30,565 nt of DNA, from the IMG/VR virus record IMGVR_UViG_2778261446_000008, positions 1-30,565 of that record; one strand, 5' to 3'. The notes below the pieces were generated by a model. It searched no databases. It saw only the letters and a program-made list of their open reading frames with translations, and was not told the origin of the DNA. Source of the DNA: a virus (lineage: Duplodnaviria > Heunggongvirae > Uroviricota > Caudoviricetes). Position numbers and translations under genes: made by a program. Below are positions 910 to 30,565 of the stretch, piece after piece; the first letter of the stretch is position 1; each line of letters begins with the position of its first letter.

Positions 910-1763
910 GCACCATCCTGAAATGGGCGGGAAATAAAACCGCCATTATGTCCGAACTGAAAAAACATCTTCCTGCTGGCCCGCGACTGGTTGAACCTTT
1001 CGCGGGTTCCTGTGCTGTGATGATGGAGACGGATTACCCCAGCTATCTTGTTGCGGATATTAATCCTGATTTAATCAACCTCTATAAAAAGATTGTCGCT
1101 GATTGCGAAGCGTTTATATCTCGTGCCAGAGCTTTATTTGAGGAAGCAAACAGGGATGTGGCTTATTACAACATAAGGCAGGAGTTTAATTACTCCACTG
1201 AAATTACTGATTTCATGAAAGCGGTATATTTCCTGTATCTCAATCGTCATGGTTACCGTGGGTTATGTCGCTATAACAAGAGCGGGCATTTCAACATTCC
1301 GTACGGTAATTATAAAAATCCGTATTTCCCTGAAAAAGAAATTCGCGCATTTGCAGAGAAAGCCCAGCGGGCAACGTTTATCTGCGCAAGCTTTGATGAA
1401 ACGCTGGCGATGCTGCAGGTGGGGGATGTGGTGTATTGCGATCCGCCGTATGACGGTACGTTTTCCGGCTATCACACTGATGGTTTCACTGAAGATGACC
1501 AGTATCACCTGGCATCCGTTCTTGAACATCGGTCATCAGAAGGACATCCGGTCATTGTTTCTAACAGTGACACATCCCTGATCCGTTCGCTGTATCGCAA
1601 TTTTACTCACCACTACATCAAGGCAAAACGCAGCATCGGTGTGGCAGCTGGTGAGAGTAAATCTGCAACAGAAATCATCGCTGTTTCCGGGCCGCGCTGC
1701 TGGGTGGGATTTGATCCTTCGCGTGGCGTGGATAGTTCAGCCGTGTACGGAGTACGTGCATGA
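906..1763 (+). CDS. DNA adenine methyltransferase (Dam-like, N6-adenine MTase)
   Basis: N-terminus [11 protein letters not shown]... resembles the Dam AdoMet-binding region, and the catalytic DPPY motif is present (VYCDPPYDG). The track ORF begins at 846, but ATG 906 overlapping the upstream stop is the likely start. Its stop overlaps the start of A (ATGA at 1760-1763). Confidence 0.85.
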
Positions 1764-4174
1764 GTCATGCCGATATGAACAACTGCTGCGGCTTTAACGA
1801 GGCTGCCGCAGCGTTCTCATGGAACAGCCCGAAAAAGGCCATTAACCCTTATCTGGACCCGGCGGAAGTTGCGCCGGTTTCTGCGCTTTCAAACCTGATC
1901 ACTCTGTACGCTGCCGATAACGAGCAGGAACAACTGCGCCGCGAGGCACTGAGTGATCAGGTCTGGGAGCGTTATTTTTTTAATGAATCACGTGATCCTG
2001 TCCAGCGCGAAATGGAGCAGGATAAGCTCATTAGCCGGGCAAAGCTGGCGCATGAGCAGCAGCGTTTTAATCCGGATATGGTCATTCTGGCGGACGTCAA
2101 CGCCCAGCCTTCCCATATCAGCAAGCCGCTGATGCAACGTATTGAATACTTTAGCAGCCTGGGCAGGCCAAAGGCTTATTCCCGCTATTTACGTGAGACG
2201 ATTAAGCCATGTCTGGAACGACTGGAGCATGTACGCGACAGCCAGCTATCTGCATCTTTTCGTTTTATGGCAAGCCATGAAGGGCTGGACGGCCTGCTTA
2301 TCCTGCCTGAAATGAGTCAGGATCAGGTGAAGCGCCTGTCTACCCTTGTCGCTGCGCATATGAGCATGTGCCTTGATGCCGCTTGTGGTGATTTGTATGC
2401 CACCGATGACGTTAAGCCAGAAGAAATCCGCAAAACATGGGAAAAGGTGGCAGCGGAAACCCTGCGTCTGGATGTTATTCCGCCTGCGTTTGAGCAACTC
2501 CGTCGGAAAAGAAACCGCCGTAAACCCGTGCCCTATGAACTCATTCCGGGTTCGCTTGCGCGTATGTTGTGTGCCGACTGGTGGTATCGGAAATTATGGA
2601 AGATGCGTTGCGAATGGCGGGAAGAGCAGTTGCGTGCTGTCTGCCTGGTCAGCAAAAAAGCATCTCCCTATGTCAGCTATGAAGCCGTGATGCATAAACG
2701 TGAGCAGCGCCGCAAGTCACTGGAGTTTTTCCGTTCTCATGAACTGGTGAACGAAGAGGGCGACACGCTGGATATGGAAGACGTGGTAAACGCCAGCAGC
2801 AGCAACCCGGCGCACCGCCGCAATGAGATGATGGCCTGTGTTAAAGGTCTGGAGCTTATCGCGGAAATGCGTGGTGATTGCGCCGTTTTCTACACCATTA
2901 CCTGTCCGTCACGTTTCCATTCCACGCTCAATAACGGCAGACCAAACCCAACCTGGACAAATGCGACGGTAAGACAAAGCAGCGATTATCTGGTCGGCAT
3001 GTTTGCTGCATTTCGTAAGGCGATGCACAAAGCCGGGTTGCGCTGGTATGGCGTGCGGGTGGCTGAGCCGCATCATGACGGTACGGTTCACTGGCACCTG
3101 TTGTGTTTCATGCGCAAAAAAGACCGCCGTGCCATTACTGCATTGTTGCGTAAGTTTGCCATCCGTGAAGACCGCGAGGAACTGGGTAATAACACTGGTC
3201 CACGCTTTAAATCTGAGCTGATAAACCCGCGCAAAGGAACACCGACAAGCTACATCGCGAAATACATTAGTAAGAACATTGACGGGCGTGGTCTGGCTGG
3301 CGAGATCAGCAAGGAAACGGGTAAATCCCTGCGTGATAACGCTGAATACGTTAATGCCTGGGCGTCTCTGCATCGTGTTCAGCAATTCCGCTTCTTTGGT
3401 ATTCCGGGGCGTCAGGCTTACCGTGAACTGCGATTGCTGGCTGGTCAGGCGGCAAGGCAACAGGGCGACAAAAAAGCAGGTGCGCCGGTACTGGATAACC
3501 CGCGCCTTGATGCCATCCTGGCTGCTGCTGATGCTGGTTGTTTTGCCACTTACATCATGAAGCAGGGTGGCGTACTGGTTCCCCGCAAATATCACCTCAT
3601 CAGAACTGCTTATGAAATTAACGAAGAGCCGACCGCCTATGGCGATCACGGCATTCGTATTTATGGCATCTGGTCACCCATTGCAGAGGGCAAGATCTGC
3701 ACTCATGCAGTGAAGTGGAAAATGGTCCGTAAAGCCGTTGACGTTCAGGAGGCGGTAGCCGACCAGGGCGCTTGCGCCCCTTGGACTCGTGGCAATAACT
3801 GTCCCCTTGCTGAAAATTTGAACCAACAAGGGAAAGACAAATCAGCTGATGGGGATACCAGAACGGATATCACCCGCATGGATGACAAGGAGTTGCACGA
3901 TTACCTGCACAGTATGAGCAAAAAAGAACGCCGGGAACTGGCAGCAAGGTTACACCTGGTTAAACCGAAACGGCGTAAAGACTACAAACAGCGAATTACA
4001 GACCATCAGCGACAGCAGCTCGTGTATGAGCTGAAGTCCAGAGGGTTTGATGGTAGCGAGAAAGAGGTCGATTTACTCCTTCGCGGCGGCAGTATTCCGT
4101 CAGGAGCAGGCCTGCGTATCTTCTATCGGAACCAGCGTTTGCAGGAAGATGATAAGTGGCGAAACCTGTATTAA
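1760..4174 (+). CDS. A: replication initiation protein A (rolling-circle replication endonuclease, P2 gpA-like)
   Basis: 804-aa ORF at the position of P2 gene A; contains the active-site tyrosine motif [12 protein letters not shown] typical of P2 A / phiX A-family initiators. Confidence 0.85.
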
Positions 4175-4327: not shown

Positions 4328-4516
4328 ATGCAGGACTATTTTTTGGAGTCTTTGAAGCTCCAGCGCATTGATTTTTTTCTTAAGCTTGTAGCGGCCAGTG
4401 AGTGTAGTGATGAAGAGAAGGGACTGGCTCTGCAGTGGGTTTCTGAATTGACTGATGAACTCATGGCAAAAATCAGAAGCCACGAATACAACCGCTCAAT
4501 GGATGTCATCAGCTGA
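4328..4516 (+). CDS. hypothetical protein; candidate N-terminal part of a Tum-like SOS-inducible antirepressor
   Basis: 62-aa ORF with a strong RBS (aggagg, 4318-4323) directly downstream of the LexA box; its 3' end overlaps the open frame of the DinI-like gene (4455-4516) in a +1 relationship. Confidence 0.5.
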   Translation: MQDYFLESLKLQRIDFFLKLVAASECSDEEKGLALQWVSELTDELMAKIRSHEYNRSMDVIS

Positions 4517-4526
4517 GGTGACTTTT

Positions 4527-4760
4527 ATGCGCATTGAAATAATGATCGATAAAGAGCAGAAGATTAGCCAGTCTACCCTGGACGCCCTTGAATCCGAGCT
4601 TTACCGTAATCTGCGCCCCCTGTATCCCAAAACGGTAATTCGTATCCGCAAAGGTAGCTCTAACGGTGTGGAACTGACCGGACTGCAACTGGACGAAGAA
4701 AGGAAGCAAGTGATGAAAATTATGCAGAAGGTGTGGGAAGACGACAGCTGGCTGCATTAA
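4527..4760 (+). CDS. DinI-like protein (DinI family, SOS-regulated)
   Basis: 77-aa product from ATG 4527 (RBS gaggtg 4515-4520): MRIEIMIDKEQKIS...VWEDDSWLH aligns by eye with E. coli DinI (MRIEVTIAK...TWESADDWF). The track ORF starts at 4455, but the DinI homology begins at 4527. Confidence 0.75.
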   Translation: MRIEIMIDKEQKISQSTLDALESELYRNLRPLYPKTVIRIRKGSSNGVELTGLQLDEERKQVMKIMQKVWEDDSWLH

Positions 4761-4964
4761 GAAACGTTGCTGGCGTCTGAACTTGTTTCTGGCGTCAGCA
4801 AGGTTGAACAACGAGCCCTTGCGAGGCGTTAGCTCTGTAGTGCATGTCTATGCCGCATGAGATCGCATGATCGTTTGAGGATCGTTTTTGCTAAGGCCCG
4901 CCAGAACTGGTGGGCTTTTGCGTAGATCATGCAGGTGCATGAAAACCACTACATAAAGCGGGCA

Positions 4965-4983
4965 GGCGTGGCGGGGATACGAG
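4965..4983. other. cos-like site (putative cohesive-end / terminase cleavage sequence)
   Basis: GGCGTGGCGGGGATACGAG followed by GCGCGC closely resembles the 19-nt cohesive ends of P2 (GGCGAGGCGGGGAAAGCAC) and 186 as I recall them; it sits in the A-to-Q interval where cos is expected in a P2 prophage. Confidence 0.5.
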
Positions 4984-5085
4984 CGCGCGCTAACTCATAA
5001 ATCCTAGATTATTAGTGGATTTATCTCATTGAAATGTGCACTATTCCCAGCATTGAGTTGTACCAGATGTCTTTATGGAGGGACT

Positions 5086-6852
5086 GTGGCTTTTGTAACT
5101 GATATTCGGCTTGAAGATAATGCTATTGCTGCACCTGCGACAGCACAGGTTATGGCTCAGAGGCTAGGATCTGTATTACGTAAGAGATATGAAGAATTCA
5201 TCCATAAAAGAGAGTGTGCACCAGGCCAAGCAGACTATGATGTAAAAATGGCTAGCAGGGCTTTAGCCGCATTCACTATGTATCAGTTAGGATGTGTGGA
5301 TGATAAGTATGCAGGGGAGTCTGTATGTGATAGTAGTGAAGATGGTGGTATAGATGGAATAGCAATCAACCATAACGAAAAAATCGTTGTTGTTGTTCAA
5401 TCAAAATTTCACCAATCGGGAAACGGCACTTGGACAAGAGCCGATTTTATGTGTTTTAAGGATGCTTGTGAGAAGCTACAAAGTGAAAGATACGAATTAT
5501 TTGATTCCATATTGCAAAATAAAAGCGGGGAAATAAGTGCGGCTTTAAGTAGTTTTGAATACAAGTTCATCTTTGCGATGGCGCATACAGGTAAAAAAGG
5601 TGCTGCAGAGGAAATATTAAATGATATGCGGGAATGGCAATATCAATTAAACGCTGCAGCTTTTACACCTGAGGATGAGCCTAAAGAGAACTGGGGATTT
5701 CAGGTTCATTTAATATCCTCTGAAGATATGATGCATTGGTTACAGAATGGCTCTCGAAATCAAATTGATCTTAACAGGGTTGAAATTGAGCGTTTTGGAT
5801 TTTTGAATGAACCATATCAAGCTTTTTACGGGGCTATTAGTGGTGATCAAGTTGCAGAATGGTGGGAAGAGCATGGTGCTCGATTATTTACAAAAAACAT
5901 AAGGAATATGCTTGGTAAAACAGAAGTGAATGAGGAAATAAAAAAGACAGCTATAGATAATCCTGATATGTTTTGGTTTTATAATAATGGGATTACTGTA
6001 CTGGTTAAGGAAGTTGTTCCTCATAGACGAAACGCAGCTCCTAATATAGAGAGAGGGATTTTTGATTTTCGTGATGTAAGTGTCATTAATGGTGCACAAA
6101 CAGTCAGTAGTATTGGCGCATGTAAAGATGCGCTTGGTGAAAACATATATAGACTCAAAGTGCCAGCTAGATTCATTGTTATAGATGATGATACTGATAA
6201 TTTAACTGCAAATGCAATTACAAAAGCTAACAATTTCCAAAATAGAGTATTGGGAAGAGATTTTGCATCGCAGCAGGCAGATCAACATAGATTGGCAAGG
6301 GAGTTAGTGCTTGAAGGATATCAATATCAGTTACTAAGAACAGATGAAGATCATTCACAGACAAATACGAAAGTCATTGACTTGGATGAGGCGCTCAATG
6401 CACTCGCATGTTTAAGTAAAAATAATACGGTTGTATCGACACTAAAATCAAATCGCGGTAGGTTTTTTGAAAATTTTGAAGGCTCTCTATATAAAACTAT
6501 TTTCAATCCAAGATTAAGTGGTTTAAAACTTATCAATACTGTTCTACATTTTAGAGTTATAGATAAGTTGATCGGTAAAACATTACTATCAGTAGATAAA
6601 ACGACCCATAGTCGCAAGCATTTAATTATTACGCATGGTAATAGATACTATGCGTCTGTACTATTGAGCAACGTTTCTGGGATACATAATAGCTCAGAAA
6701 TTCTTGTTCCAGATGAAAAAAATCTTTCCGAAGAATTAAGTGCATTAATTCAACGTGCTGAAGAGTACATTGAAGATAATTACCCGAATGCCTATCCGGC
6801 AAGATTTTTTGCAAATCCAACGAAAATACAAGAGTTATACGATAATGTTTAA
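5086..6852 (+). CDS. AIPR-like putative abortive-infection protein with an N-terminal PD-(D/E)xK-like nuclease motif (candidate anti-phage cargo gene)
   Basis: Long ORF (track 5029..6852 from a TTG, 607 codons); plausible starts are GTG 5086 (RBS ggaggg 5077-5082) or ATG 5152. Markedly AT-rich relative to flanking phage DNA. Motifs: SEDGGIDGIAI...VVVQSKF (D...QxK nuclease-like) and a central FWFYNNGITVL / INGAQT block that I recall as AIPR-like. Lies between cos and Q and ends at a strong terminator. Confidence 0.6.
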   Translation: MAFVTDIRLEDNAIAAPATAQVMAQRLGSVLRKRYEEFIHKRECAPGQADYDVKMASRALAAFTMYQLGCVDDKYAGESVCDSSEDGGIDGIAINHNEKIVVVVQSKFHQSGNGTWTRADFMCFKDACEKLQSERYELFDSILQNKSGEISAALSSFEYKFIFAMAHTGKKGAAEEILNDMREWQYQLNAAAFTPEDEPKENWGFQVHLISSEDMMHWLQNGSRNQIDLNRVEIERFGFLNEPYQAFYGAISGDQVAEWWEEHGARLFTKNIRNMLGKTEVNEEIKKTAIDNPDMFWFYNNGITVLVKEVVPHRRNAAPNIERGIFDFRDVSVINGAQTVSSIGACKDALGENIYRLKVPARFIVIDDDTDNLTANAITKANNFQNRVLGRDFASQQADQHRLARELVLEGYQYQLLRTDEDHSQTNTKVIDLDEALNALACLSKNNTVVSTLKSNRGRFFENFEGSLYKTIFNPRLSGLKLINTVLHFRVIDKLIGKTLLSVDKTTHSRKHLIITHGNRYYASVLLSNVSGIHNSSEILVPDEKNLSEELSALIQRAEEYIEDNYPNAYPARFFANPTKIQELYDNV

Positions 6853-6856
6853 ACTA

Positions 6857-6882
6857 AAGGGAGGTTGCCTCCCTTTTTTTTA
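6857..6882. terminator. bidirectional rho-independent terminator between the AIPR-like gene and Q
   Basis: aagggagg-ttg-cctccctt hairpin followed by TTTTTTT on the + strand and preceded by A-rich sequence; sits between two convergent stop codons (6852 and 6884). Confidence 0.7.
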
Positions 6883-6883
6883 A

Positions 6884-7912
6884 TTAGAAATGGTATTCTT
6901 GGAATTCAATAACACCTTCTTTTATGAAATTGTTTATTTCTTGTAATCTTTTTTGCAATGGCAATAATTCATTACGTACAAATACTTTACTCGCCTTCTC
7001 TACATCTCCAAAGCCCCCGACATTATTAGGCATTATCCCCATCATTTGTGGCGGCACACGATGCGCCGCCATCATGTCGTCCCGGCTCACGTTCTTGATA
7101 TTCAGGAACTCATCCTTCGCCGCCACTTCTGACAACGGGATAATCTGAAGCCCGTCCTTTTTACCGTTAGGCGAGTACATAAACAGGTTACGGAAGTTAC
7201 CAGGACCTTTGGCGCTTTTCATCGCATTGCGGAGGTTGTTCACATCCTCCTGGTTCTGCGCTGCATCGGTCATGTACATGATGAAGCCTGCATGACTGCC
7301 GTTAATGTAATACTTGCGGCGGAACAGCGTGGCGGACTCGTTGAGCAAAGCGGATGGGATGGCAGAAAGATAGCCGGGCAGGCCGTAGATCTCCTGATTA
7401 ATATCCGGTTCCATCAGATGAAAAATGCTGCCTTTCGTGAACTGATACGGCTGGGTTGTCATACCGTATTGCACAAACCAGTAGGTATCCAGGTCTAACC
7501 CGCGTCGGGTGTATTTTGCCAGAGCAGGCTCAAGGGCGATAACTTCACCGAAGCGGTTCGTGCGTTTCTCCAGGTAGGCGTTACCAAATACCAGATAGTC
7601 CTGCACAAAACGTGAAAAATCCTGCTGGCTGAGCAGCGGGTGAGGGATGTAGGTACTGGTCAGAATGTTGCATTTCACTGCAATCGGTGAACTGTGATGC
7701 ACGGCGGCGCGGAAGGTGCGCGCCAGCCCGTCAAAGCTTACTGGCGGCTCATACCAGCGATCTGTCTGTACGCATTCCACATAGTCCAGCAGTTCGCGGC
7801 GGTCCAGAACAGGAACGGGATCACCGAAGCTGAATGCTTCGGCTGAAGTCTGGCTTTTATGCTGGATCTGGTTCGTCGACGCAGCGCGGTTCTTCTTACT
7901 CTTTCCCATCAA
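6884..7912 (-). CDS. Q: portal protein (P2 gpQ-like)
   Basis: 342-aa ORF immediately downstream of the large terminase gene on the same strand with an ATGA start/stop overlap (7909-7912); P2 synteny and size. Confidence 0.85.
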   Translation of the reverse strand: MMGKSKKNRAASTNQIQHKSQTSAEAFSFGDPVPVLDRRELLDYVECVQTDRWYEPPVSFDGLARTFRAAVHHSSPIAVKCNILTSTYIPHPLLSQQDFSRFVQDYLVFGNAYLEKRTNRFGEVIALEPALAKYTRRGLDLDTYWFVQYGMTTQPYQFTKGSIFHLMEPDINQEIYGLPGYLSAIPSALLNESATLFRRKYYINGSHAGFIMYMTDAAQNQEDVNNLRNAMKSAKGPGNFRNLFMYSPNGKKDGLQIIPLSEVAAKDEFLNIKNVSRDDMMAAHRVPPQMMGIMPNNVGGFGDVEKASKVFVRNELLPLQKRLQEINNFIKEGVIEFQEYHF

Positions 7913-9675
7913 AAAATCTCCACAATATTGCTGGTATTGGCGGACTCGCCCTGCAGCGGTTCGTTAAACAGTGCGTGCATTGTTGCCCAGGCCAGATCCG
8001 CATGGCTGGCTTCTTCGCTGCGGCTGGCTTCATAGGTCGGGCGGTTGCCGCTGGCGGTGGTGGCGCGACGGATTGCCATAAATGACTGCGCTATGTCGGT
8101 GTGTCCGGCGTCAAACTCCAGACGGCGGTGACTGATAATGTCGTAGGCCTTGAGTACCAGGGCGTTTTTAACATTGGGGTTGTAGACAAACTCCCGGACG
8201 GCAGGAAAAAACGCTTTCACGTTCTCGTAAACCCCGTGACCGACGCCGGTTGAGTCGATACCGATATATGTCACGTTGTACTGTTCAGTCAGTTTTTTGA
8301 TGGCGTCAGCCTGGGCGCGGAAGTCCATCCCGCGCCACTGGTGACGCTCAAGAATGCGGAACTTACCACCCGGCACGGCTGGCGGAGCCACTACCACGCA
8401 TCCGGCACTGTCGCCGTTCTGCGTACCTTTTGCCGGGTCATAACCGATCCACACTTCGCGCCAGCCAAACGGGCGCAGCGCCAGTGCATGAAAGTCGGTC
8501 CAGACTTCCCAACTGTCCACCATGCACGCCTGCAGCTCGCTGAGCGGAAACACGGACGCGAGATCGTCCACAAACTCGCACATCAGCAGGTTCTGGTATT
8601 CGTCCGGGCTGTACTCCATGCGTAGTTGGTCGAGGTCGAACAGGTTACAGCCGCCGCGCACCGCATCTTCCACGGTGACTATCTGGCGGTATTGCCCGTC
8701 TGCGCACAGCAGGCCGGGGGCCAGATTGCTGTGGGACAGGTCGATGTCCACCTTATCGGCTTTGTTGCGCCCACGGTTGAACAGCGCACCGGACCAGAAC
8801 GGATAAGCACTGTGGGTCAGGCTGGATGGCGTGGAAAAATAGGTCTGTCGCCATTTCTTGTGAATAGCCATACCGGAAGCCACTTTGCGCAGCTCCTGGA
8901 ATTTCGGTATCCAGAAATATTCATCCAGATACAGGTTGCCGTGATAACTCTGGGCAGTGCGGGCATTGGTGCCGAGGAAATACAGTGTGGCCCCGTTGGG
9001 AAGCACCATCGGATCGCCTTTCAGCTCCACCTCCACTTCTTTGGCAAAGTCGATGATGTACTGTTTGAAGACGTGGGCCTGTGCCTTACTGGCAGAAAGG
9101 AAAATCTGGTTACGTCCGGTAAGCAGGGCGTCAATCAGGGCTTCACGGGCAAAATAGAAGGTCGCGCCGATCTGGCGTGACTTCAGCAGGTTGCGGATGC
9201 GGTTGGTTTTTCCGGCTTCCCACCAGTGGCGCTGGTAGTTGAACATGGAGGAATGGAAGATTTCTTCCAGCTTCTCAATCTGTTCATCGGTGAAGACATT
9301 CTTTTCCGGCTGACGGCGCGGGCCTTTGTTGCGGTTGGCGACGTTAGGGTTTAAGTCGGCTTCGTTGCCGCCATTGTTAAACTTGCCGATCCGCGCGTGG
9401 CGCTCAGACTGGCGCGCCAGCAGGTCAATCTCTTTGAAATCTTTCCCTTCTTTGTGCTCCTTCATGATGAGCTGGCAGTAGCGTGCGGCGGTGGTGAGCT
9501 GCATCTGATCCAGCGGCCCATATTCACTCCACTTGTCGCGTTTTTTCCAGCTGTGAACGGTTGCAACTTTCTCGCCCAGCATTTCAGCAATGCGGGCTAC
9601 GCGGTATCCCTGAAAGTACAGCAGCATGGCCTGCCGACGGGGATCGAGATCTGCGGGTGTCAGTGTGGTGTTCAT
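7909..9675 (-). CDS. P: terminase large (ATPase) subunit (P2 gpP-like)
   Basis: 588-aa ORF divergent from the O-N-M capsid operon; size and position match P2 P. Confidence 0.85.
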   Translation of the reverse strand: MNTTLTPADLDPRRQAMLLYFQGYRVARIAEMLGEKVATVHSWKKRDKWSEYGPLDQMQLTTAARYCQLIMKEHKEGKDFKEIDLLARQSERHARIGKFNNGGNEADLNPNVANRNKGPRRQPEKNVFTDEQIEKLEEIFHSSMFNYQRHWWEAGKTNRIRNLLKSRQIGATFYFAREALIDALLTGRNQIFLSASKAQAHVFKQYIIDFAKEVEVELKGDPMVLPNGATLYFLGTNARTAQSYHGNLYLDEYFWIPKFQELRKVASGMAIHKKWRQTYFSTPSSLTHSAYPFWSGALFNRGRNKADKVDIDLSHSNLAPGLLCADGQYRQIVTVEDAVRGGCNLFDLDQLRMEYSPDEYQNLLMCEFVDDLASVFPLSELQACMVDSWEVWTDFHALALRPFGWREVWIGYDPAKGTQNGDSAGCVVVAPPAVPGGKFRILERHQWRGMDFRAQADAIKKLTEQYNVTYIGIDSTGVGHGVYENVKAFFPAVREFVYNPNVKNALVLKAYDIISHRRLEFDAGHTDIAQSFMAIRRATTASGNRPTYEASRSEEASHADLAWATMHALFNEPLQGESANTSNIVEIF

Positions 9676-11729: not shown

Positions 11730-12380
11730 ATGAGCCTGAGTCCCGCACGGCAGCATCGCCTGCGCGTTCAGGCTGAACAGGCCGCCCGCGAGGGCGGCAG
11801 TGTTCGCCACGCATCGGGCTATGACCTGATGCTGCTGCAACTGGCGGAAGACCGCCGCCGTCTCAAGGGCGTTCAGTCCACGGTCAAAAAAGCGGAAATC
11901 AAGGTGGAGCTGCTGCCGAAATACGCCGCCTGGGCAGAGGGTGTTCTGGCTGCCGGAGGCGCTCAACAGGATGACGTGCTGATGTACGTGATGCTGTGGC
12001 GCATTGATGCCGGAGATTATGCCGGGGCGCTGGAGATCGGGCGTCATGCCCTGCGTCATGGCTGGGTGATGCCGCTGGGTAACCGCAATGTGCAAACCGT
12101 GCTGGCAGAGGAAATGGCAGACGCGGCACAGAGCGCAATGCTTGCCGCCACCGGCTTTGATGCCGATCTGTTGTTGCAGACGCTGGAGCTGACAGACGGT
12201 CTGGATATGCCGGACCAGTCACGGGCGCGTCTGCATAAAGCGATTGGCGCTGTCCTGAGTGAAAGCAATCCGGCTTCCGCCCTTAATCATCTCAACCATG
12301 CGTTACAGCTCGATCCCCGCTGTGGCGTGAAAAAAGACAAACAGCAGCTGGAGCGCAGACTGCGCAATGACAGCCGCTGA
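11730..12380 (+). CDS. M: terminase small/endonuclease subunit (P2 gpM-like)
   Basis: 216-aa ORF directly after N, as in P2. Confidence 0.8.
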   Translation: MSLSPARQHRLRVQAEQAAREGGSVRHASGYDLMLLQLAEDRRRLKGVQSTVKKAEIKVELLPKYAAWAEGVLAAGGAQQDDVLMYVMLWRIDAGDYAGALEIGRHALRHGWVMPLGNRNVQTVLAEEMADAAQSAMLAATGFDADLLLQTLELTDGLDMPDQSRARLHKAIGAVLSESNPASALNHLNHALQLDPRCGVKKDKQQLERRLRNDSR

Positions 12381-17523: not shown

Positions 17524-18121
17524 TCTGCTGCCACCGGGTTCAACTTCACTGGAGCGCCGACTGGCGCAAACCTGTAGCGGGATTTCTGATTTGCAGGTGC
17601 CGCTGCGTGACTTGTGGAATCCGGCTACCTGTCCGGTCAGCTTTCTGCCTTATCTCGCCTGGGCGTTCTCTGTGGATCGCTGGGACGAGGGCTGGACAGA
17701 AAGCGTCAAACGCCAGGTAGTGAAGGATGCTTTTTATATTCATCAGCACAAAGGAACCACCAGTGCCGTACGGCGGGTGGTGGAGCCGTTCGGCTTCCTG
17801 ATCCGCATTATTGAGTGGTGGCAGACCGGAGAAATACCGGGCACGTTTCGTCTGGACATTGGTGTGCAGGACCAGGGCATCACTGAAGATACCTATCTGG
17901 AACTTGAGCGACTGATAAGCGATGCCAAACCATGTAGCCGTCACATGATCGGCATGTCCATCAATCTGCAGACCAGCGGCCCGCATTGGGTGGGAGCCGC
18001 CAGCTATCTTGGCGAAGAAATCACGATCTATCCGTATATCAACGAAACGATTATTTCCGGTGGCACCGCGCATGAAGGCGGGGCGGTCCATGTTATTGAC
18101 ACAATGAGAGTGAATCCATGA
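17516..18121 (+). CDS. I: tail/baseplate protein I (P2 gpI-like)
   Basis: 201-aa ORF between J and the tail-fibre gene. Confidence 0.8.
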   Translation: MNSLLPPGSTSLERRLAQTCSGISDLQVPLRDLWNPATCPVSFLPYLAWAFSVDRWDEGWTESVKRQVVKDAFYIHQHKGTTSAVRRVVEPFGFLIRIIEWWQTGEIPGTFRLDIGVQDQGITEDTYLELERLISDAKPCSRHMIGMSINLQTSGPHWVGAASYLGEEITIYPYINETIISGGTAHEGGAVHVIDTMRVNP

Positions 18122-19695
18122 GCACAAAATTTTATACCCTGCTGACGGATATTGGCGCGGCGAAACTTGCCAGCGCCGCCGCGCTCGGTGTGCCGCTAAA
18201 AATTACCCATATGGCGGTGGGCGATGGCGGTGGAGTATTGCCAACGCCGGACGCAAAGCAGACGGCACTGGTAAATGAGAAACGCCGGGCTGCGCTGAAT
18301 ATGCTTTATATCGACCCGCAGAACAGCAGCCAGATTATTGCCGAACAGGTGATCCCTGAAAACGAGGGCGGTTGGTGGATACGTGAAGTGGGCTTGTTTG
18401 ATGAGTCCGGGGCATTGATTGCCGTGGGCAACTGCCCGGAAAGCTATAAGCCGCAACTGGCTGAAGGTAGCGGGCGCACTCAGACCGTGCGCATGGTGCT
18501 GATTACCAGCAGCACGGACAATATCACCCTGAACATCGACCCTGCCGTAGTGCTGGCAACCCGCAAGTATGTGGATGATAAGGTACTGGAGCTGAAGGTG
18601 TACGCGGATGATCAGATGGCAAAACATCTTGCCGCACCGGACCCGCATTCACAGTACGCGCCAAAAGCCAGCCCGACATTTACCGGAACCCCCAAAGCGC
18701 CAACGCCAGCGGCGGGGGATAATACCACGCAGGTTGCGACCACTGCGTTTGTACAGGCGGCACTGACGGCCCTTATTAATGGTGCGCCAGCCACGCTGGA
18801 CACGCTGAAAGAAATAGCCGCAGCCATTAACAATGATCCGAATTTCAGTACCACCATTAACAATGCGCTGGCACTAAAAGCACCGTTGTCGAGTCCGGCA
18901 CTCACCGGAACGCCAACAGCCCCCACGGCGGCGCAGTCGGTCAACAATACACAGATTGCCACTACGGCTTTTGTGAAATCGGCGATTGCAGGAATGGTGG
19001 GTTCTGCACCTGCTGCACTGGATACACTGAACGAACTGGCGGCGGCACTGGGGAATGATCCGAACTTTGCCACGACAATGCTTAATGCGCTGGCAGGTAA
19101 ACAACCGCTGGACAATACGCTTACCAATTTGAGTGGAAAGGATGTAGCTGGTCTTCTCGCATACCTTGGTTTGGGAGAAGCGGCAAAAAGCAGGGTTCTT
19201 CAGAGCGGAGGAGATTCAGTTAAAGACGTCATGAGCCAGAATGCCATTACTTACCTGCTTTCCTTGAAAGCAGGTGTTAACGGTGAAAGAGTAGAGGCTG
19301 AAAACTTCAGAGAAGCCCTGAATTTGGGTAACGCGGCATTAAAAAACACAGGAACCGGGCAAGGGCAATTGCCTGATATGTCTGCATTTTTATCTAATCA
19401 AGAAGTGAATGGCTATCAGTATCTTCCTGGTGGGCTAATTCTTCAATGGGGAAACACACCATGTGAAGACCGGCGTACAACCGTTTCAAAGTTCCCGATA
19501 CCCTTTCCAAACGAATGCTTAATGGTCATTGTGTGTGGTTTTCAGGTGGCAGGAACCTACCAGGCTTATACGGTGGTAAATGGGGAATGGAACGACCAAT
19601 TCTCATGGAACGCCTTTTACGCGCAGTCTGGAAATATTCCTGTCCTTGCCGCAGCGGGACAGGTTAACGCCCGGTTTTTAGCTATAGGGAGATAA
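18118..19695 (+). CDS. H: tail fibre protein H: constant N-terminal part plus currently expressed variable C-terminal (receptor-binding) part
   Basis: N-terminus MSTKFYTLLTDIGAAKLA...ITHMAVGDGGG is the conserved P2 H N-terminus; three tandem tail-fibre collar repeats (TGTPKAPT.../LDTLKEIAAAINNDPNF). The C-terminal ~170 aa lie inside the invertible segment. Confidence 0.9.
   Translation: MSTKFYTLLTDIGAAKLASAAALGVPLKITHMAVGDGGGVLPTPDAKQTALVNEKRRAALNMLYIDPQNSSQIIAEQVIPENEGGWWIREVGLFDESGALIAVGNCPESYKPQLAEGSGRTQTVRMVLITSSTDNITLNIDPAVVLATRKYVDDKVLELKVYADDQMAKHLAAPDPHSQYAPKASPTFTGTPKAPTPAAGDNTTQVATTAFVQAALTALINGAPATLDTLKEIAAAINNDPNFSTTINNALALKAPLSSPALTGTPTAPTAAQSVNNTQIATTAFVKSAIAGMVGSAPAALDTLNELAAALGNDPNFATTMLNALAGKQPLDNTLTNLSGKDVAGLLAYLGLGEAAKSRVLQSGGDSVKDVMSQNAITYLLSLKAGVNGERVEAENFREALNLGNAALKNTGTGQGQLPDMSAFLSNQEVNGYQYLPGGLILQWGNTPCEDRRTTVSKFPIPFPNECLMVIVCGFQVAGTYQAYTVVNGEWNDQFSWNAFYAQSGNIPVLAAAGQVNARFLAIGR
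19154..19179. repeat. candidate 26-bp invertase crossover site 1 (gix/hix/cix-like) inside gene H
   Basis: TTCTCGCATACC-TT-GGTTTGGGAGAA: near-palindromic 12-2-12 architecture resembling Hin/Gin/Cin crossover sites; located at the constant/variable junction of H. Confidence 0.5.
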
Positions 19696-19698
19696 TGT

Positions 19699-20121
19699 AT
19701 GTACATATTTGACAACAAAACGCAGTGTTTTTTCCCTCTCGCATTGAAAGACAGATATATTGCTGCCGGAACATGGCCGGAGAATGGCGTTGAGGTGGAT
19801 GACGATACTTTCTCCGAATTCCAGGTGCCGCCAGCAGGGAAAATGAGAGTTGCAGGCAGTGACGGCCTGCCTGCATGGGGTGATATCCCGCCGCCCACCC
19901 ATGAAGAATTGATCACCATTGCTGAACAGGTGCGCCAACAGCTGCTGACTCATGCTGACGCGGTAATGCTCGACTGGCGAACGGAACTAATGCTGGATGA
20001 AATCAGCGACACCAACAGAGCTAAACTGTCGGCATGGCTGGCGTATAAGAATGAAGTTAAGGCGGTTGATGTGACAACCAACCCTGAGCATATTAACTGG
20101 CCTGTTCCCCCGGAGGTGTAG
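19699..20121 (+). CDS. G: tail fibre assembly protein (P2 gpG-like)
   Basis: 140 aa; follows H after a 3-nt gap; C-terminal ...NWPVPPEV resembles the conserved tfa C-terminus. Confidence 0.8.
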   Translation: MYIFDNKTQCFFPLALKDRYIAAGTWPENGVEVDDDTFSEFQVPPAGKMRVAGSDGLPAWGDIPPPTHEELITIAEQVRQQLLTHADAVMLDWRTELMLDEISDTNRAKLSAWLAYKNEVKAVDVTTNPEHINWPVPPEV

Positions 20122-20509
20122 GCCATACGGGTTTTGCTGTATCAACCCGCATTAACAGTACCCGGTACTTCTTCCACTCAGACAACGCGGCGGTTTCCTC
20201 ATCCGTCGCGATATCCGCGTCAACAGCATCCTGTCGCCAGGCTATTTCAGAATCCGCCCGCGTACGTAAATCACGTCGTGTTTGCTCAGCCCGGGCAACT
20301 CGTTCTTCAGGCGACAGGGAGGGGATGTCAACCCACACAGGATAACCATTATTATCCGTTCCCAGCATTTTCCCTTCCGGTGGGTACTGGCTATAAACAG
20401 CCATTGCCTCATCACTCACATCGGCAGCATGTTCCGGCCACGTTCCGGCAGAAACATAGGCATCTTTAAGTGCTTCCGGATAAAAAACACCCTGATAAAA
20501 TTTATTCAT
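20093..20509 (-). CDS. alternative tail fibre assembly protein (tfa'), expressed after inversion
   Basis: 138-aa product from ATG 20509 (MNKFYQGVFYPEA...WPTPPGEQAS), homologous to G; the track ORF 20093..20650 reads through from the upstream alternative fibre segment. ATGA overlap with the alternative H segment. Confidence 0.7.
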   Translation of the reverse strand: MNKFYQGVFYPEALKDAYVSAGTWPEHAADVSDEAMAVYSQYPPEGKMLGTDNNGYPVWVDIPSLSPEERVARAEQTRRDLRTRADSEIAWRQDAVDADIATDEETAALSEWKKYRVLLMRVDTAKPVWPTPPGEQAS

Positions 20510-20958
20510 AAATACCCCACAGCGAAGAAACAGCAATCTTCCACCGCCCCTGCTGGCGCCCAGTTTTGGATCCTGATTTGAGACCGATTTTCTATACTGA
20601 CATTCATTGACTGGCTGTAGCCATTCGCTGCTCTGCATCCCATAGCCCACAGACCTGCGGTTGGAAATGCATAGGGCAGGTTGTAGATATTATTCTCTCC
20701 GCCGCGTGTCCGTATGGTTCCCCACTGCAGCATTATCTTTACCGGATTATCTGTGGTTGCAAGACAAGGAATATACAAATAGCCATTTCCACCGGCGAAG
20801 AAAGAGAAATCTGATGCACTCAATACCTGATTTTTTCCCACTCCCATAGAGGCCAGTGCCGCCGTACCAAGCTGAAGGGCATTTCTGAAAGCGGCCACAT
20901 TCTGAATATCACCACCGTTTGCACTTTTCTGCATCGCTCCAGCGGCCTGTTTTACCGT
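20506..20958 (-). CDS. alternative tail-fibre variable C-terminal segment (Hv'), promoterless and startless; fused in frame to constant H after inversion
   Basis: The minus-strand ORF (track 20506..21012) is homologous to the current H C-terminus (RNALQLGTAAL vs REALNLGNAAL; LQWGTI vs LQWGNT). The reading frame across crossover site 2 matches the H frame across site 1. Confidence 0.65.
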   Translation of the reverse strand, partial: TVKQAAGAMQKSANGGDIQNVAAFRNALQLGTAALASMGVGKNQVLSASDFSFFAGGNGYLYIPCLATTDNPVKIMLQWGTIRTRGGENNIYNLPYAFPTAGLWAMGCRAANGYSQSMNVSIENRSQIRIQNWAPAGAVEDCCFFAVGYL

Positions 20959-20984
20959 TTCTTCCAAATGAACGTTTAAGAAAA
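20959..20984. repeat. candidate 26-bp invertase crossover site 2 (inverted relative to site 1)
   Basis: TTCTTCCAAATG-AA-CGTTTAAGAAAA; its reverse complement matches site 1 at 17 of 26 positions with identical central TT; about 55 bp upstream of the invertase gene. Confidence 0.45.
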
Positions 20985-21039
20985 TGCAGAGATAACGGCT
21001 AACTGGCATCATCTCCGGTTTTTATTCAGGGGGATGATC

Positions 21040-21606
21040 ATGCTTATTGGCTATGTACGCGTGTCAACAAATGACCAGAACACCGATTTGCAACGCAATG
21101 CACTGAACTGTGCGGGATGTGAGCGGATTTTTGAGGATAAAATCAGTGGCACCAAGTCCGACAGACCGGGGCTGAAAAAGCTGCTCAGGACACTATCGGC
21201 AGGAGACACGCTGGTTGTCTGGAAGCTGGACAGACTGGGGCGCAGTATGCGGCATCTTGTTACGCTGATAGAAGAGCTGCGCCAGCGTGGCGTGAATTTC
21301 CGAAGCCTGACTGACAGTATTGATACCAGCACCCCAATGGGCCGTTTCTTTTTTCATGTCATGGGTGCCCTGGCTGAAATGGAACGCGAACTGATAGTTG
21401 AACGTACCAGGGCGGGGCTGGCTGCAGCTCGTGCTAAAGGCAGAGTAGGTGGACGCCGTCCTAAGTTGACCAGCGAACAGTGGGCACAGATTGGGCGTTT
21501 ACTCGAGGCCGGAGAATCAAGACAGCGTATTGCACTGATTTTTGATGTAGGCGTTTCTACCATTTATCGAAAATTTCCGGCAAATAAGAACAATAAATCT
21601 CCCTGA
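21040..21606 (+). CDS. site-specific DNA invertase, serine recombinase (Hin/Gin/Cin/Pin family)
   Basis: N-terminus MLIGYVRVSTNDQNTDLQ with catalytic serine context (YVRVST), resolvase core, and C-terminal HTH (GVSTIYRKF); 188 aa from ATG 21040. Confidence 0.9.
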   Translation: MLIGYVRVSTNDQNTDLQRNALNCAGCERIFEDKISGTKSDRPGLKKLLRTLSAGDTLVVWKLDRLGRSMRHLVTLIEELRQRGVNFRSLTDSIDTSTPMGRFFFHVMGALAEMERELIVERTRAGLAAARAKGRVGGRRPKLTSEQWAQIGRLLEAGESRQRIALIFDVGVSTIYRKFPANKNNKSP

Positions 21607-29505: not shown

Positions 29506-29868
29506 TGGTGGAGCTGGCGGGAGTTGAACCCGCGTCCGAAATTCCTACATCCTCGGTACTACATGCTTAGTCAGTCTTTACATTCGCTTGCCAGCTGCGG
29601 ACGGACACGCCACTAACAAACTAGCCTGATTAAGTTTTAACGCTTCAACCCCAGGCAGGGCTTCCACGCGATCTCTTTTGGGTTTGACCTCTCTTGATCC
29701 CCGTCCTAAGAGCGGAGGCTAGGGAGAGAGGGCTCTAAGCAGGTTATTAAGCTGCTAAAGCGTAGTTTTCGTCGTTTGCGACTATTTTTTGCGGCTTTTT
29801 ACGAGGCCAACCGCCCCTCGGCATGCACCTTGGGTTTCGCAAATCCCGTCGAATCCAGAATCAGCCCC
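29506..29868 (-). ncRNA. ssrA: tmRNA (SsrA, transfer-messenger RNA)
   Basis: The reverse complement reads GGGGCTGATTCTGGATTCGACGGGATTTGCGAAACCCAAGGTGCATGCC...GCAAACGACGAAAACTACGCTTTAGCAGCTTAA...GGTTCAACTCCCGCCAGCTCCACCA, i.e. the enterobacterial tmRNA including the tag-peptide reading frame (ANDENYALAA) and the tRNA-like 3' end. Confidence 0.95.
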
Positions 29869-30082: not shown

Positions 30083-30565
30083 TTAACGGTGGGCGTTTTT
30101 CATGATACGCGCTTTATCCACCTGCCATTCGCGCTCTTTGATATCTGAACGTTTATCGTGCTGTTTCTTACCTTTGGCGACGCCGATTTTCACTTTGCAC
30201 CAGGCATTTTTCCAGTACAGGGAGAGCGCCACTACGGTATAGCCTTCTCGATTGACGCGACCGTACAATGAGTCCAGTTCGCGCTGGTTGAGAAGTAACT
30301 TGCGGGTACGGGTAGGATCGCACACCACATGCGTGGAGGCCACTGCCATTGGCGTGATGTTTGCGCCAAACAGGAACGCTTCTCCGTCACGCAGAAGGAC
30401 ATAGCTGTCGCTGATATTGGCTTTTCCTGCGCGCAGGGATTTAACTTCCCAGCCTTGCAGGGCAAGTCCCGCTTCGAACTCTTCTTCGATAAAGTATTCG
30501 TGACGGGCGCGCTTGTTAAGCGCGATGGTCGCTGAACCAGGTTTATGTGCTTTTTTCTTCGTCAT
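30083..30565 (-). CDS. smpB: SsrA-binding protein SmpB
   Basis: 160-aa product [56 protein letters not shown]... matches E. coli/Salmonella SmpB as I recall it; located upstream of ssrA on the same strand. Confidence 0.95.

Follow-up and report, generated by a model that had tools for sequence, protein, structure and literature searches.

We posit that the region at positions 4965–4983 of the analysed stretch (hereafter the window, 30,565 nucleotides) is very probably the cos packaging site of an apparently complete P2-like prophage of the Fels-2/186 type, with an AIPR cargo gene occupying one of the two slots that flank it. This assignment draws on sequence homology and gene order, which are set out below together with the limits of the conserved cos block and the DNA that is exchanged on either side of it.

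The window represents a P2-like (Peduoviridae) prophage of Fels-2/186 type that is integrated beside ssrA and apparently complete. In the early (A) arm, a D12-class Dam methyltransferase gene (846–1763, + strand) lies directly upstream of replication gene A (1760–4174), and a Dam methyltransferase gene is likewise found upstream of A in Fels-2, SEN8 and the retron-Ec67 element. An ORF of 62 aa (4328–4516, + strand) that is conserved in relatives and matches PHROG 698 (unknown function; 5.9e-38) is located upstream of a DinI/Tum-type gene (4527–4760, + strand; Pfam DinI 1.2e-22, PHROG 189 1.5e-29). The position of this small ORF matches that of PSP3 tumA; a homology to TumA was rejected as the two proteins gave no alignment. 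The DinI/Tum gene, whose homologous 234-nt CDS is listed in RefSeq as a DinI-like family protein, is the last conserved gene of the early arm before cos, and its presence hints that the prophage responds to SOS induction. Packaging and capsid genes follow in the order Q, P, then O, N, M, comprising the portal gene Q (6884–7912, − strand; Pfam Phage_portal, 83–95% protein identity to Q of relatives), the large terminase gene P (7909–9675, − strand; Pfam Terminase_6N, Terminase_6C and Terminase_5) and the small terminase gene M (11730–12380, + strand; Pfam Phage_term_smal 2.2e-40). P is expected to be the enzyme that would nick cos, and M the predicted subunit that recognises it.

Genes for head completion, lysozyme, baseplate, tail fibre, sheath, tape measure and D are also present, and there is no sign of a dead prophage because all late genes examined are full length. 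Just beyond tail gene D lie a full-length tmRNA gene, ssrA (29506–29868, − strand; Rfam 295.8 bits), and smpB (30083–30565, − strand), so that the prophage borders directly on ssrA at its 3' end. The tmRNA was the only Rfam match in the whole window, with none at cos. The integrase and repressor end of the prophage falls outside the window. Among the tail genes, a Hin/Gin-type serine invertase gene (21034–21606) is found beside an inverted alternative tail-fibre C-terminus (20506–21012, − strand), and a second tail-fibre assembly gene (20093–20650, − strand) opposes the forward pair at 18118–19695 and 19699–20121; the region 19699–21606 looks like an invertible host-range switch.

Reference circular cos junctions were assembled from the GenBank ends of P2, 186, PSP3 and P4, using the annotated cosL and cosR of P2 and the cos features of 186 and PSP3, which carry the remark 'top strand cut at 5' end; bottom strand cut at 3' end'. 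The window aligned to all four junctions without gaps. Its letters are GGCGTGGCGGGGATACGAG at 4965–4983 followed by CGCGCGC at 4984–4990, and with the cut positions marked by slashes the junctions read ...TGCATGAAAACCACTACATAAAGCGGGCA / GGCGTGGCGGGGATACGAG / CGCGCGC in the window, ...TGCATTAAAACCGACCCATAAAGTGGGCA / GGCGTGGCGGGGAAAGCAT / TGCGCGC in 186 and ...TGCATTAAAACCGCCCCGTGAAGCGGGCG / GGCGAGGCGGGGAAAGCAC / TGCGCGC in P2. The aligned block constitutes a P2/P4-type cos core of 55 bp (4936–4990, + strand) made up of 29 bp, a 19-nt cohesive end and the heptamer YGCGCGC. Over this core the window is identical to Fels-2 (55/55) and matches, again ungapped, SEN8 and Cartapus at 54/55 each, PSP3 at 45/55, 186 at 44/55, P4 at 43/55 and P2 at 42/55, which bears out the resemblance to P2/186 cos that a sequence-only reading of this DNA had noted at 4965–4989. 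The sequence quoted in that reading is indeed present, except that it dropped the C at 4984 and ended at 4989, one base short of the conserved heptamer. The extent of the core is also apparent from a comparison of P2 with P4, which are near-identical (52/55) over exactly 29 + 19 + 7 = 55 bp and divergent beyond. A '55-bp core' is credited to Ziermann & Calendar 1990 in passages of PMC5694545 and PMC9594776.

Base-for-base alignment with the annotated cosL of P2, 186 and PSP3 identifies 4965–4983 (+ strand) as the predicted 19-nt 5' cohesive end, from which we infer a top-strand nick between 4964 and 4965 and a bottom-strand nick between 4983 and 4984. The 19-mer is homologous to GGCG(A/T)GGCGGGGA... 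and is 14/19 identical to P2, 15/19 to 186 and 19/19 to both Fels-2 and SEN8; the differences from the mapped 186 end fall at 4 of the 19 positions (14, 16, 17 and 19). In common with P2, 186, PSP3 and P4, the window has the upstream ATGCAnnTGCATnAAAACC, the downstream YGCGCGC, the same 19-nt register and the same placement between the A arm and the Q-P operon; the A/DinI genes lie on one side of the site and the packaging genes Q and P on the other, an order also found in P2 and 186. It differs from P2 and 186 at the 3' end of the 19-mer, which is ATACGAG as opposed to AAAGCAT (186) and AAAGCAC (P2), and in the first base of the heptamer, which is C in the window and P4 and T in P2 and 186. 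The plaque-forming phage SEN8 has an identical 19-mer labelled as cos; its annotation and that of Cartapus both describe the site as 'putative', from homology only. A literature search for the exact 19-mer returned the SEN8 genome announcement (PMC5427200) as its sole match. By its 19-mer, its 55-bp core and its location, 4965–4983 is a predicted member of the P2-family cos sites.

The gene to the right of this site encodes an AIPR/AbiU-like abortive-infection protein of 588 aa (5086–6852, + strand), as assigned by Pfam, PADLOC, PHROG and RefSeq. The protein is 100% identical to RefSeq WP_021542068.1 and matches Pfam AIPR (PF10592) at 7.3e-35 over profile positions 1–305 of 308 (121.5 bits vs a gathering cutoff of 25), PADLOC AbiU at 7.4e-25 (86 bits) and, over its full length, PHROG 1841 'Abi alpha-like' at 7e-173. 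Membership in MzaE was rejected (58.3 bits vs an NCBIfam equivalog cutoff of 1050), and the cargo is a single-gene cassette with no MzaA-D partner genes beside it. RefSeq starts the gene at GTG 5086, with GGAGG at 5078–5082, which is 102 bp past the 19-mer; the mechanical ORF start, TTG 5029, is 45 bp past it and probably not the real one. The earlier description of the cargo ORF as beginning a few tens of bp to the right of cos therefore fits the TTG codon but not the RefSeq start. No sigma-70 promoter was found in a scan of 4991–5085; the nearest + strand match lies inside the cargo gene (5093–5121), and matches in total were not above those of shuffled sequence. The most likely role of the cargo is in abortive infection or exclusion, with expression in the lysogen.

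Composition and breakpoints define a low-GC Q-side cargo cassette at 4991–6883 (+ strand; 36.6% vs 52.5% GC for the window), with variable DNA extending further into the last 3–22 codons of Q, to ~6891–6948. The AIPR cassette is present in just 12/5426 complete E. coli genomes, all at ≥99.5% identity. In E. coli E423 (NZ_CM173464.1, 3503133–3508490), a decayed prophage retains cos, the AIPR gene and a truncated portal pseudogene, with DarT/macro-domain (DarTG-like) genes and an IS5 fragment alongside; there, the AIPR cassette has outlived the phage.

The convergent cargo and Q genes are separated by 31 bp (6853–6883, cargo stop to Q stop) that read AAAGGGAGG-TTG-CCTCCCTTT followed by T8 and contain a hairpin terminator (6856–6876) with a 9-bp stem preceding the T run. 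Stable folding is predicted for either strand (z-scores -3.4 and -4.2). This gap was considered as a possible cos and rejected, being a terminator hairpin without cos similarity. With the sole cos at 4965–4983 and a terminator at 6853–6883, the cargo therefore lies between cos and Q, as the sequence-only reading had proposed.

In the Fels-2-type lineage, cargo in the cos-to-Q interval is the usual arrangement and one that has been described before. Fels-2, SEN8, RE-2010 and Cartapus all show the gene order DinI - cos - cargo - Q, the Q-side slot containing two genes in SEN8 and one in Cartapus. Fels-2 itself encodes a 565-aa AIPR protein between cos and Q (STM2723.1; Pfam 8.8e-43), which is 23% identical to the window cargo protein (E = 4e-11). 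The window differs from Fels-2 in this cargo allele and in its empty A-side slot, which in Fels-2 holds an orf97-like gene. Passages of Dodd & Egan 1996 describe retrons (Ec67, Ec86) that replace the spacer between cos and terminator in 186-related prophages, and a defence hotspot between gpA and gpQ of P2-like phages has been reported (Rousset et al. 2022; NAR 2026 gkag898), comprising 1,650 gene arrangements 'adjacent to the cos site' (Rousset et al. 2022). AbiU is named among the P2 and P4 hotspot systems. The window resembles the 186-type retron slot and the gpA-gpQ hotspot in having one slot that receives many alternative cargos across genomes, and differs from the retron slot in carrying an AIPR/AbiU-like cargo instead of a retron. 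Consistent with a hotspot, its flanks are conserved and enclose alternative gene sets in relatives. The cargo has a GC content of 36.6% vs 52.5% for the window and is assigned to a family (AIPR/AbiU/PHROG 1841) with a putative anti-phage role. A similar case is the P4 hotspot (gop-beta-cII, right of cos), in which cargo starts exactly after YGCGCGC (+26 from the nick) on the same side of cos; P4 differs in that it has no Q gene and its cargo slot is bounded by int.

Breakpoints were mapped in 33 independent IMG/VR loci with an identical 19-mer, among the matches listed. Homology is lost directly past YGCGCGC in Fels-2, SEN8, Cartapus, P4, three E. coli prophages with other cargo and the IMG/VR loci; among the matches listed, the cos-containing HSP ends at 4989–4994 in 28/33 loci. 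It resumes at 6891–6948, within the last 3–22 Q codons. These comparisons show that DNA to the right of +26 is freely replaceable, and the Q-side slot contains AIPR, DUF4145, TIR, HNH or hypothetical genes in relatives. The 3' end of Q (6884–6948, ~20 codons) is low in GC and differs among cargo types, with the variable tails keeping the pattern N-W-L..E-V-I.F..Y. Since prophages with the same DUF4145 cargo (Cartapus and our locus L136) have identical Q tails, the portal C-terminus seems to travel with the cassette.

A second cargo slot is found on the A side of cos, between DinI and cos, in relatives. The left breakpoint falls at 4837–4842 in 19/33 loci among the matches listed, with an overall range of 4832–4842. 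In relatives this slot carries DUF2971, ComF plus a hypothetical gene, an HNH endonuclease, two hypothetical genes or, in Fels-2, the orf97-like gene (A-side cargo coordinates: 1067–2185 in locus L013, 651–1792 in L014, 484–1203 in L136 and 3636–4367 in L009), and P2 old and tin likewise occupy the A side. The slot is empty in the window and variously filled in relatives, and the AIPR cassette therefore occurs with at least three A-side states.

The distance between cos and Q varied with the type of 19-mer in the IMG/VR loci, a non-random sample consisting of the matches listed. Among these matches, 19 of the 21 loci with Q and the Fels-2-type 19-mer (that of the window) have a cos-to-Q distance above 250 bp (median 1759 bp; 1900 bp in the window), as opposed to ~169 bp in 17 of 20 loci with the P2-type 19-mer and ~177 bp in 4 of 7 with the 186-type. 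Listed loci with the identical 19-mer span 160–3380 bp, and two cargo-free Fels-2-type loci among them have a GC-rich spacer of 160–182 bp with a terminator directly before Q. This answers the check proposed in the sequence-only reading, whether Q comes immediately after cos in relatives without cargo: Q is ~160–180 bp past cos.

Between the two variable slots, a cos module of 150 bp (4841–4990, + strand; 55.7% GC) is always kept, as defined by breakpoints in relatives. It was found in 1277/5426 complete E. coli genomes and additionally on eight plasmid-class records; one of these, an E. coli record of 36,172 bp (NZ_CP019257.1) with cos at 70–219, is possibly an extrachromosomal P2-like phage. 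At its left end the module carries distal GCAT repeats at 4842–4845, 4855–4858 and 4865–4868 (4842–4868, + strand), the first of which adjoins the A-side breakpoint, and which we propose as a terminase recognition element. To examine the spacing, 85 cos junctions were superimposed at the nick, without shifts, and thinned to a set of 55 divergent representatives with pairwise identities of <80% in the interval -150 to -31. GCAT starts at -123 in 47% of the representatives, at -110 in 73% (89% within ±1 bp) and at -100 in 78% (95% within ±1 bp), vs a background of 0.4% per position at control positions. This fixed-register pattern is seen in P2, P4, 186 and PSP3 alike, at the same distance from the nick as in the window. 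The junction set was chosen with a 23-nt pattern inside the core, so conservation of the core is partly by construction; conservation of the distal repeats is independent of that selection. The motif CATGC/GCATG occurs five times in 4842–4964 vs 0.24 expected.

The stretch from -97 to -37 is conserved in length but not in sequence. In the window it includes a stable hairpin with a T run (4893–4918, + strand; -25.7 kcal/mol, z-score -4.1) that resembles a terminator, the CCAG..CTGG palindrome of which is partly conserved across lineages, with conserved columns at about -63 to -51. To the left of the module, 4761–4840 contains a hairpin downstream of dinI and a block in common with 186, and in relatives this stretch can be separated from cos; the common block, GGTTGAACAACGAGCCCTTGCGAGGCGTTAGC at 4805–4835, lies outside the cos module and in 186 is located ~240 bp before the right end, after orf97. 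The suggestion that 4761–4964 may hold terminase recognition elements accordingly finds support for 4841–4964, with its fixed-register GCAT repeats and part of the core, and none for 4761–4840.

The GCAT repeats are plausible candidates for terminase recognition sites, judging from their conserved spacing. In phage lambda, cos (cosQ-cosN-cosB) combines a nicking site with a nearby cluster of short repeats presumed to be bound by the small terminase subunit. The window may be alike in its working, having a predicted nicking site with a short-repeat cluster close by, although it shares no sequence homology with lambda cos and its predicted overhang is 19 nt as opposed to 12 nt. No literature match was obtained for TGCAT in combination with cos and terminase. 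We suggest tentatively, and with doubts that outweigh our confidence, that throughout the P2/P4/186/Fels-2 family a bipartite module of ~150 bp, and not just the 55-bp core, may make up the functional cos. It would consist of the core and two to three GCAT repeats at -123, -110 and -100, which would act as a cosB-like small-terminase array and are present even in P4. The limits of such a module, at -124 and +26, would be exact anchors for swaps of defence cassettes on both sides, with Q-side cassettes bringing their own last ~20 portal codons.

Three other readings of the site were weighed. That its likeness to P2/186 cos is a coincidence within a GC-rich intergenic region is exceedingly improbable: nothing beyond the four mismatches to the 186 19-mer speaks for it, and against it stand ungapped matches of 42–45/55 to four reference junctions, whereas at every other ungapped position on the two strands of the window the P2, P4 and 186 cores reach at best 28–31/55. 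The synteny is also conserved, with 93 phage records and 1277 E. coli genomes carrying the same block in the same place. The stretch 4761–4964, described as GC-rich in the sequence-only reading, has 51.5% GC, close to the 52.5% of the window, and seems GC-rich only beside the cargo at 36.6%. A functional cos elsewhere, for example at 6853–6883, would put the cargo at the right end of the genome in the manner of P2 old and tin, which lie on the A side of a cos that is only 167 bp from Q. We consider this very improbable as well, given that 6853–6883 is a 9-bp hairpin with T8 and no cos similarity, that no second site in the window exceeds 31/55 to any reference core and that GGCGWGGCGGGGA has a single exact match in the window (zero mismatches).

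Unlikely, if less so than either of these, is a true cos by descent that has become inactive, either through a defect of the prophage or through removal of a right-hand packaging element by the cargo insertion, such that no linear genome would be made. The cargo-free phages P2, 186 and PSP3 do share a loose GGTGGTGC and an A/T-rich stretch past +26 that are missing in the window, but SEN8, and P4 via P2, package without that stretch. The window does not reach the early and integrase end of the prophage, and the related E. coli E423 locus keeps cos and AIPR in a clearly decayed prophage; set against this, every late gene examined in the window is full length, other E. coli genomes contain copies of the module at 100% identity and the core is identical to that of Fels-2. 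Viable elements with unrelated DNA right after +26 include SEN8, with a near-identical core, and P4, with a 43/55 core. SEN8 was grown from a single plaque and CsCl-purified (PMC5427200), and the P2 terminase packages P4 (PMC9122126).

Returning to the preferred reading of 4965–4983 as the cos of this prophage, a sequence of packaging events can be outlined from its relatives. The substrate of P2-type terminase is monomeric circles. After induction, the prophage terminase (small subunit M, large subunit P) would recognise the ~150-bp module at 4841–4990 on circular DNA, with M probably binding at the GCAT array. It would then cut the top strand after 4964 and the bottom strand 19 nt further on, after 4983, leaving 19-nt 5' overhangs, and virion DNA would start with single-stranded 5'-GGCGTGGCGGGGATACGAG and end in ...AAAGCGGGCA. 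The linear genome would then open with the 19-mer, seven conserved bases, an AT-rich leader of ~95 bp and the AIPR gene. The proposal that a functional site would put the cargo at the left end of the packaged genome is likewise backed by homology to P2/186 cos, and the AIPR gene, followed by a terminator of its own, would occupy the far left end, as do gop/beta/cII in P4 and AIPR in Fels-2.

The current understanding of P2-like phages is unchanged by these observations, the window being a routine instance of a known layout with a cargo protein that is already in RefSeq. For annotation, the predicted site fixes the genome ends of the prophage and marks 4991–6883, within a well-known hotspot, as an exchangeable cassette with a putative defence role. 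The edges of the module and the fixed-register GCAT repeats could aid the design of minimal P2/P4-type cosmids. They could also help to probe whether cassette exchange is driven by cos ends, in line with the published speculation of Rousset et al. 2022 that these ends seed recombination.
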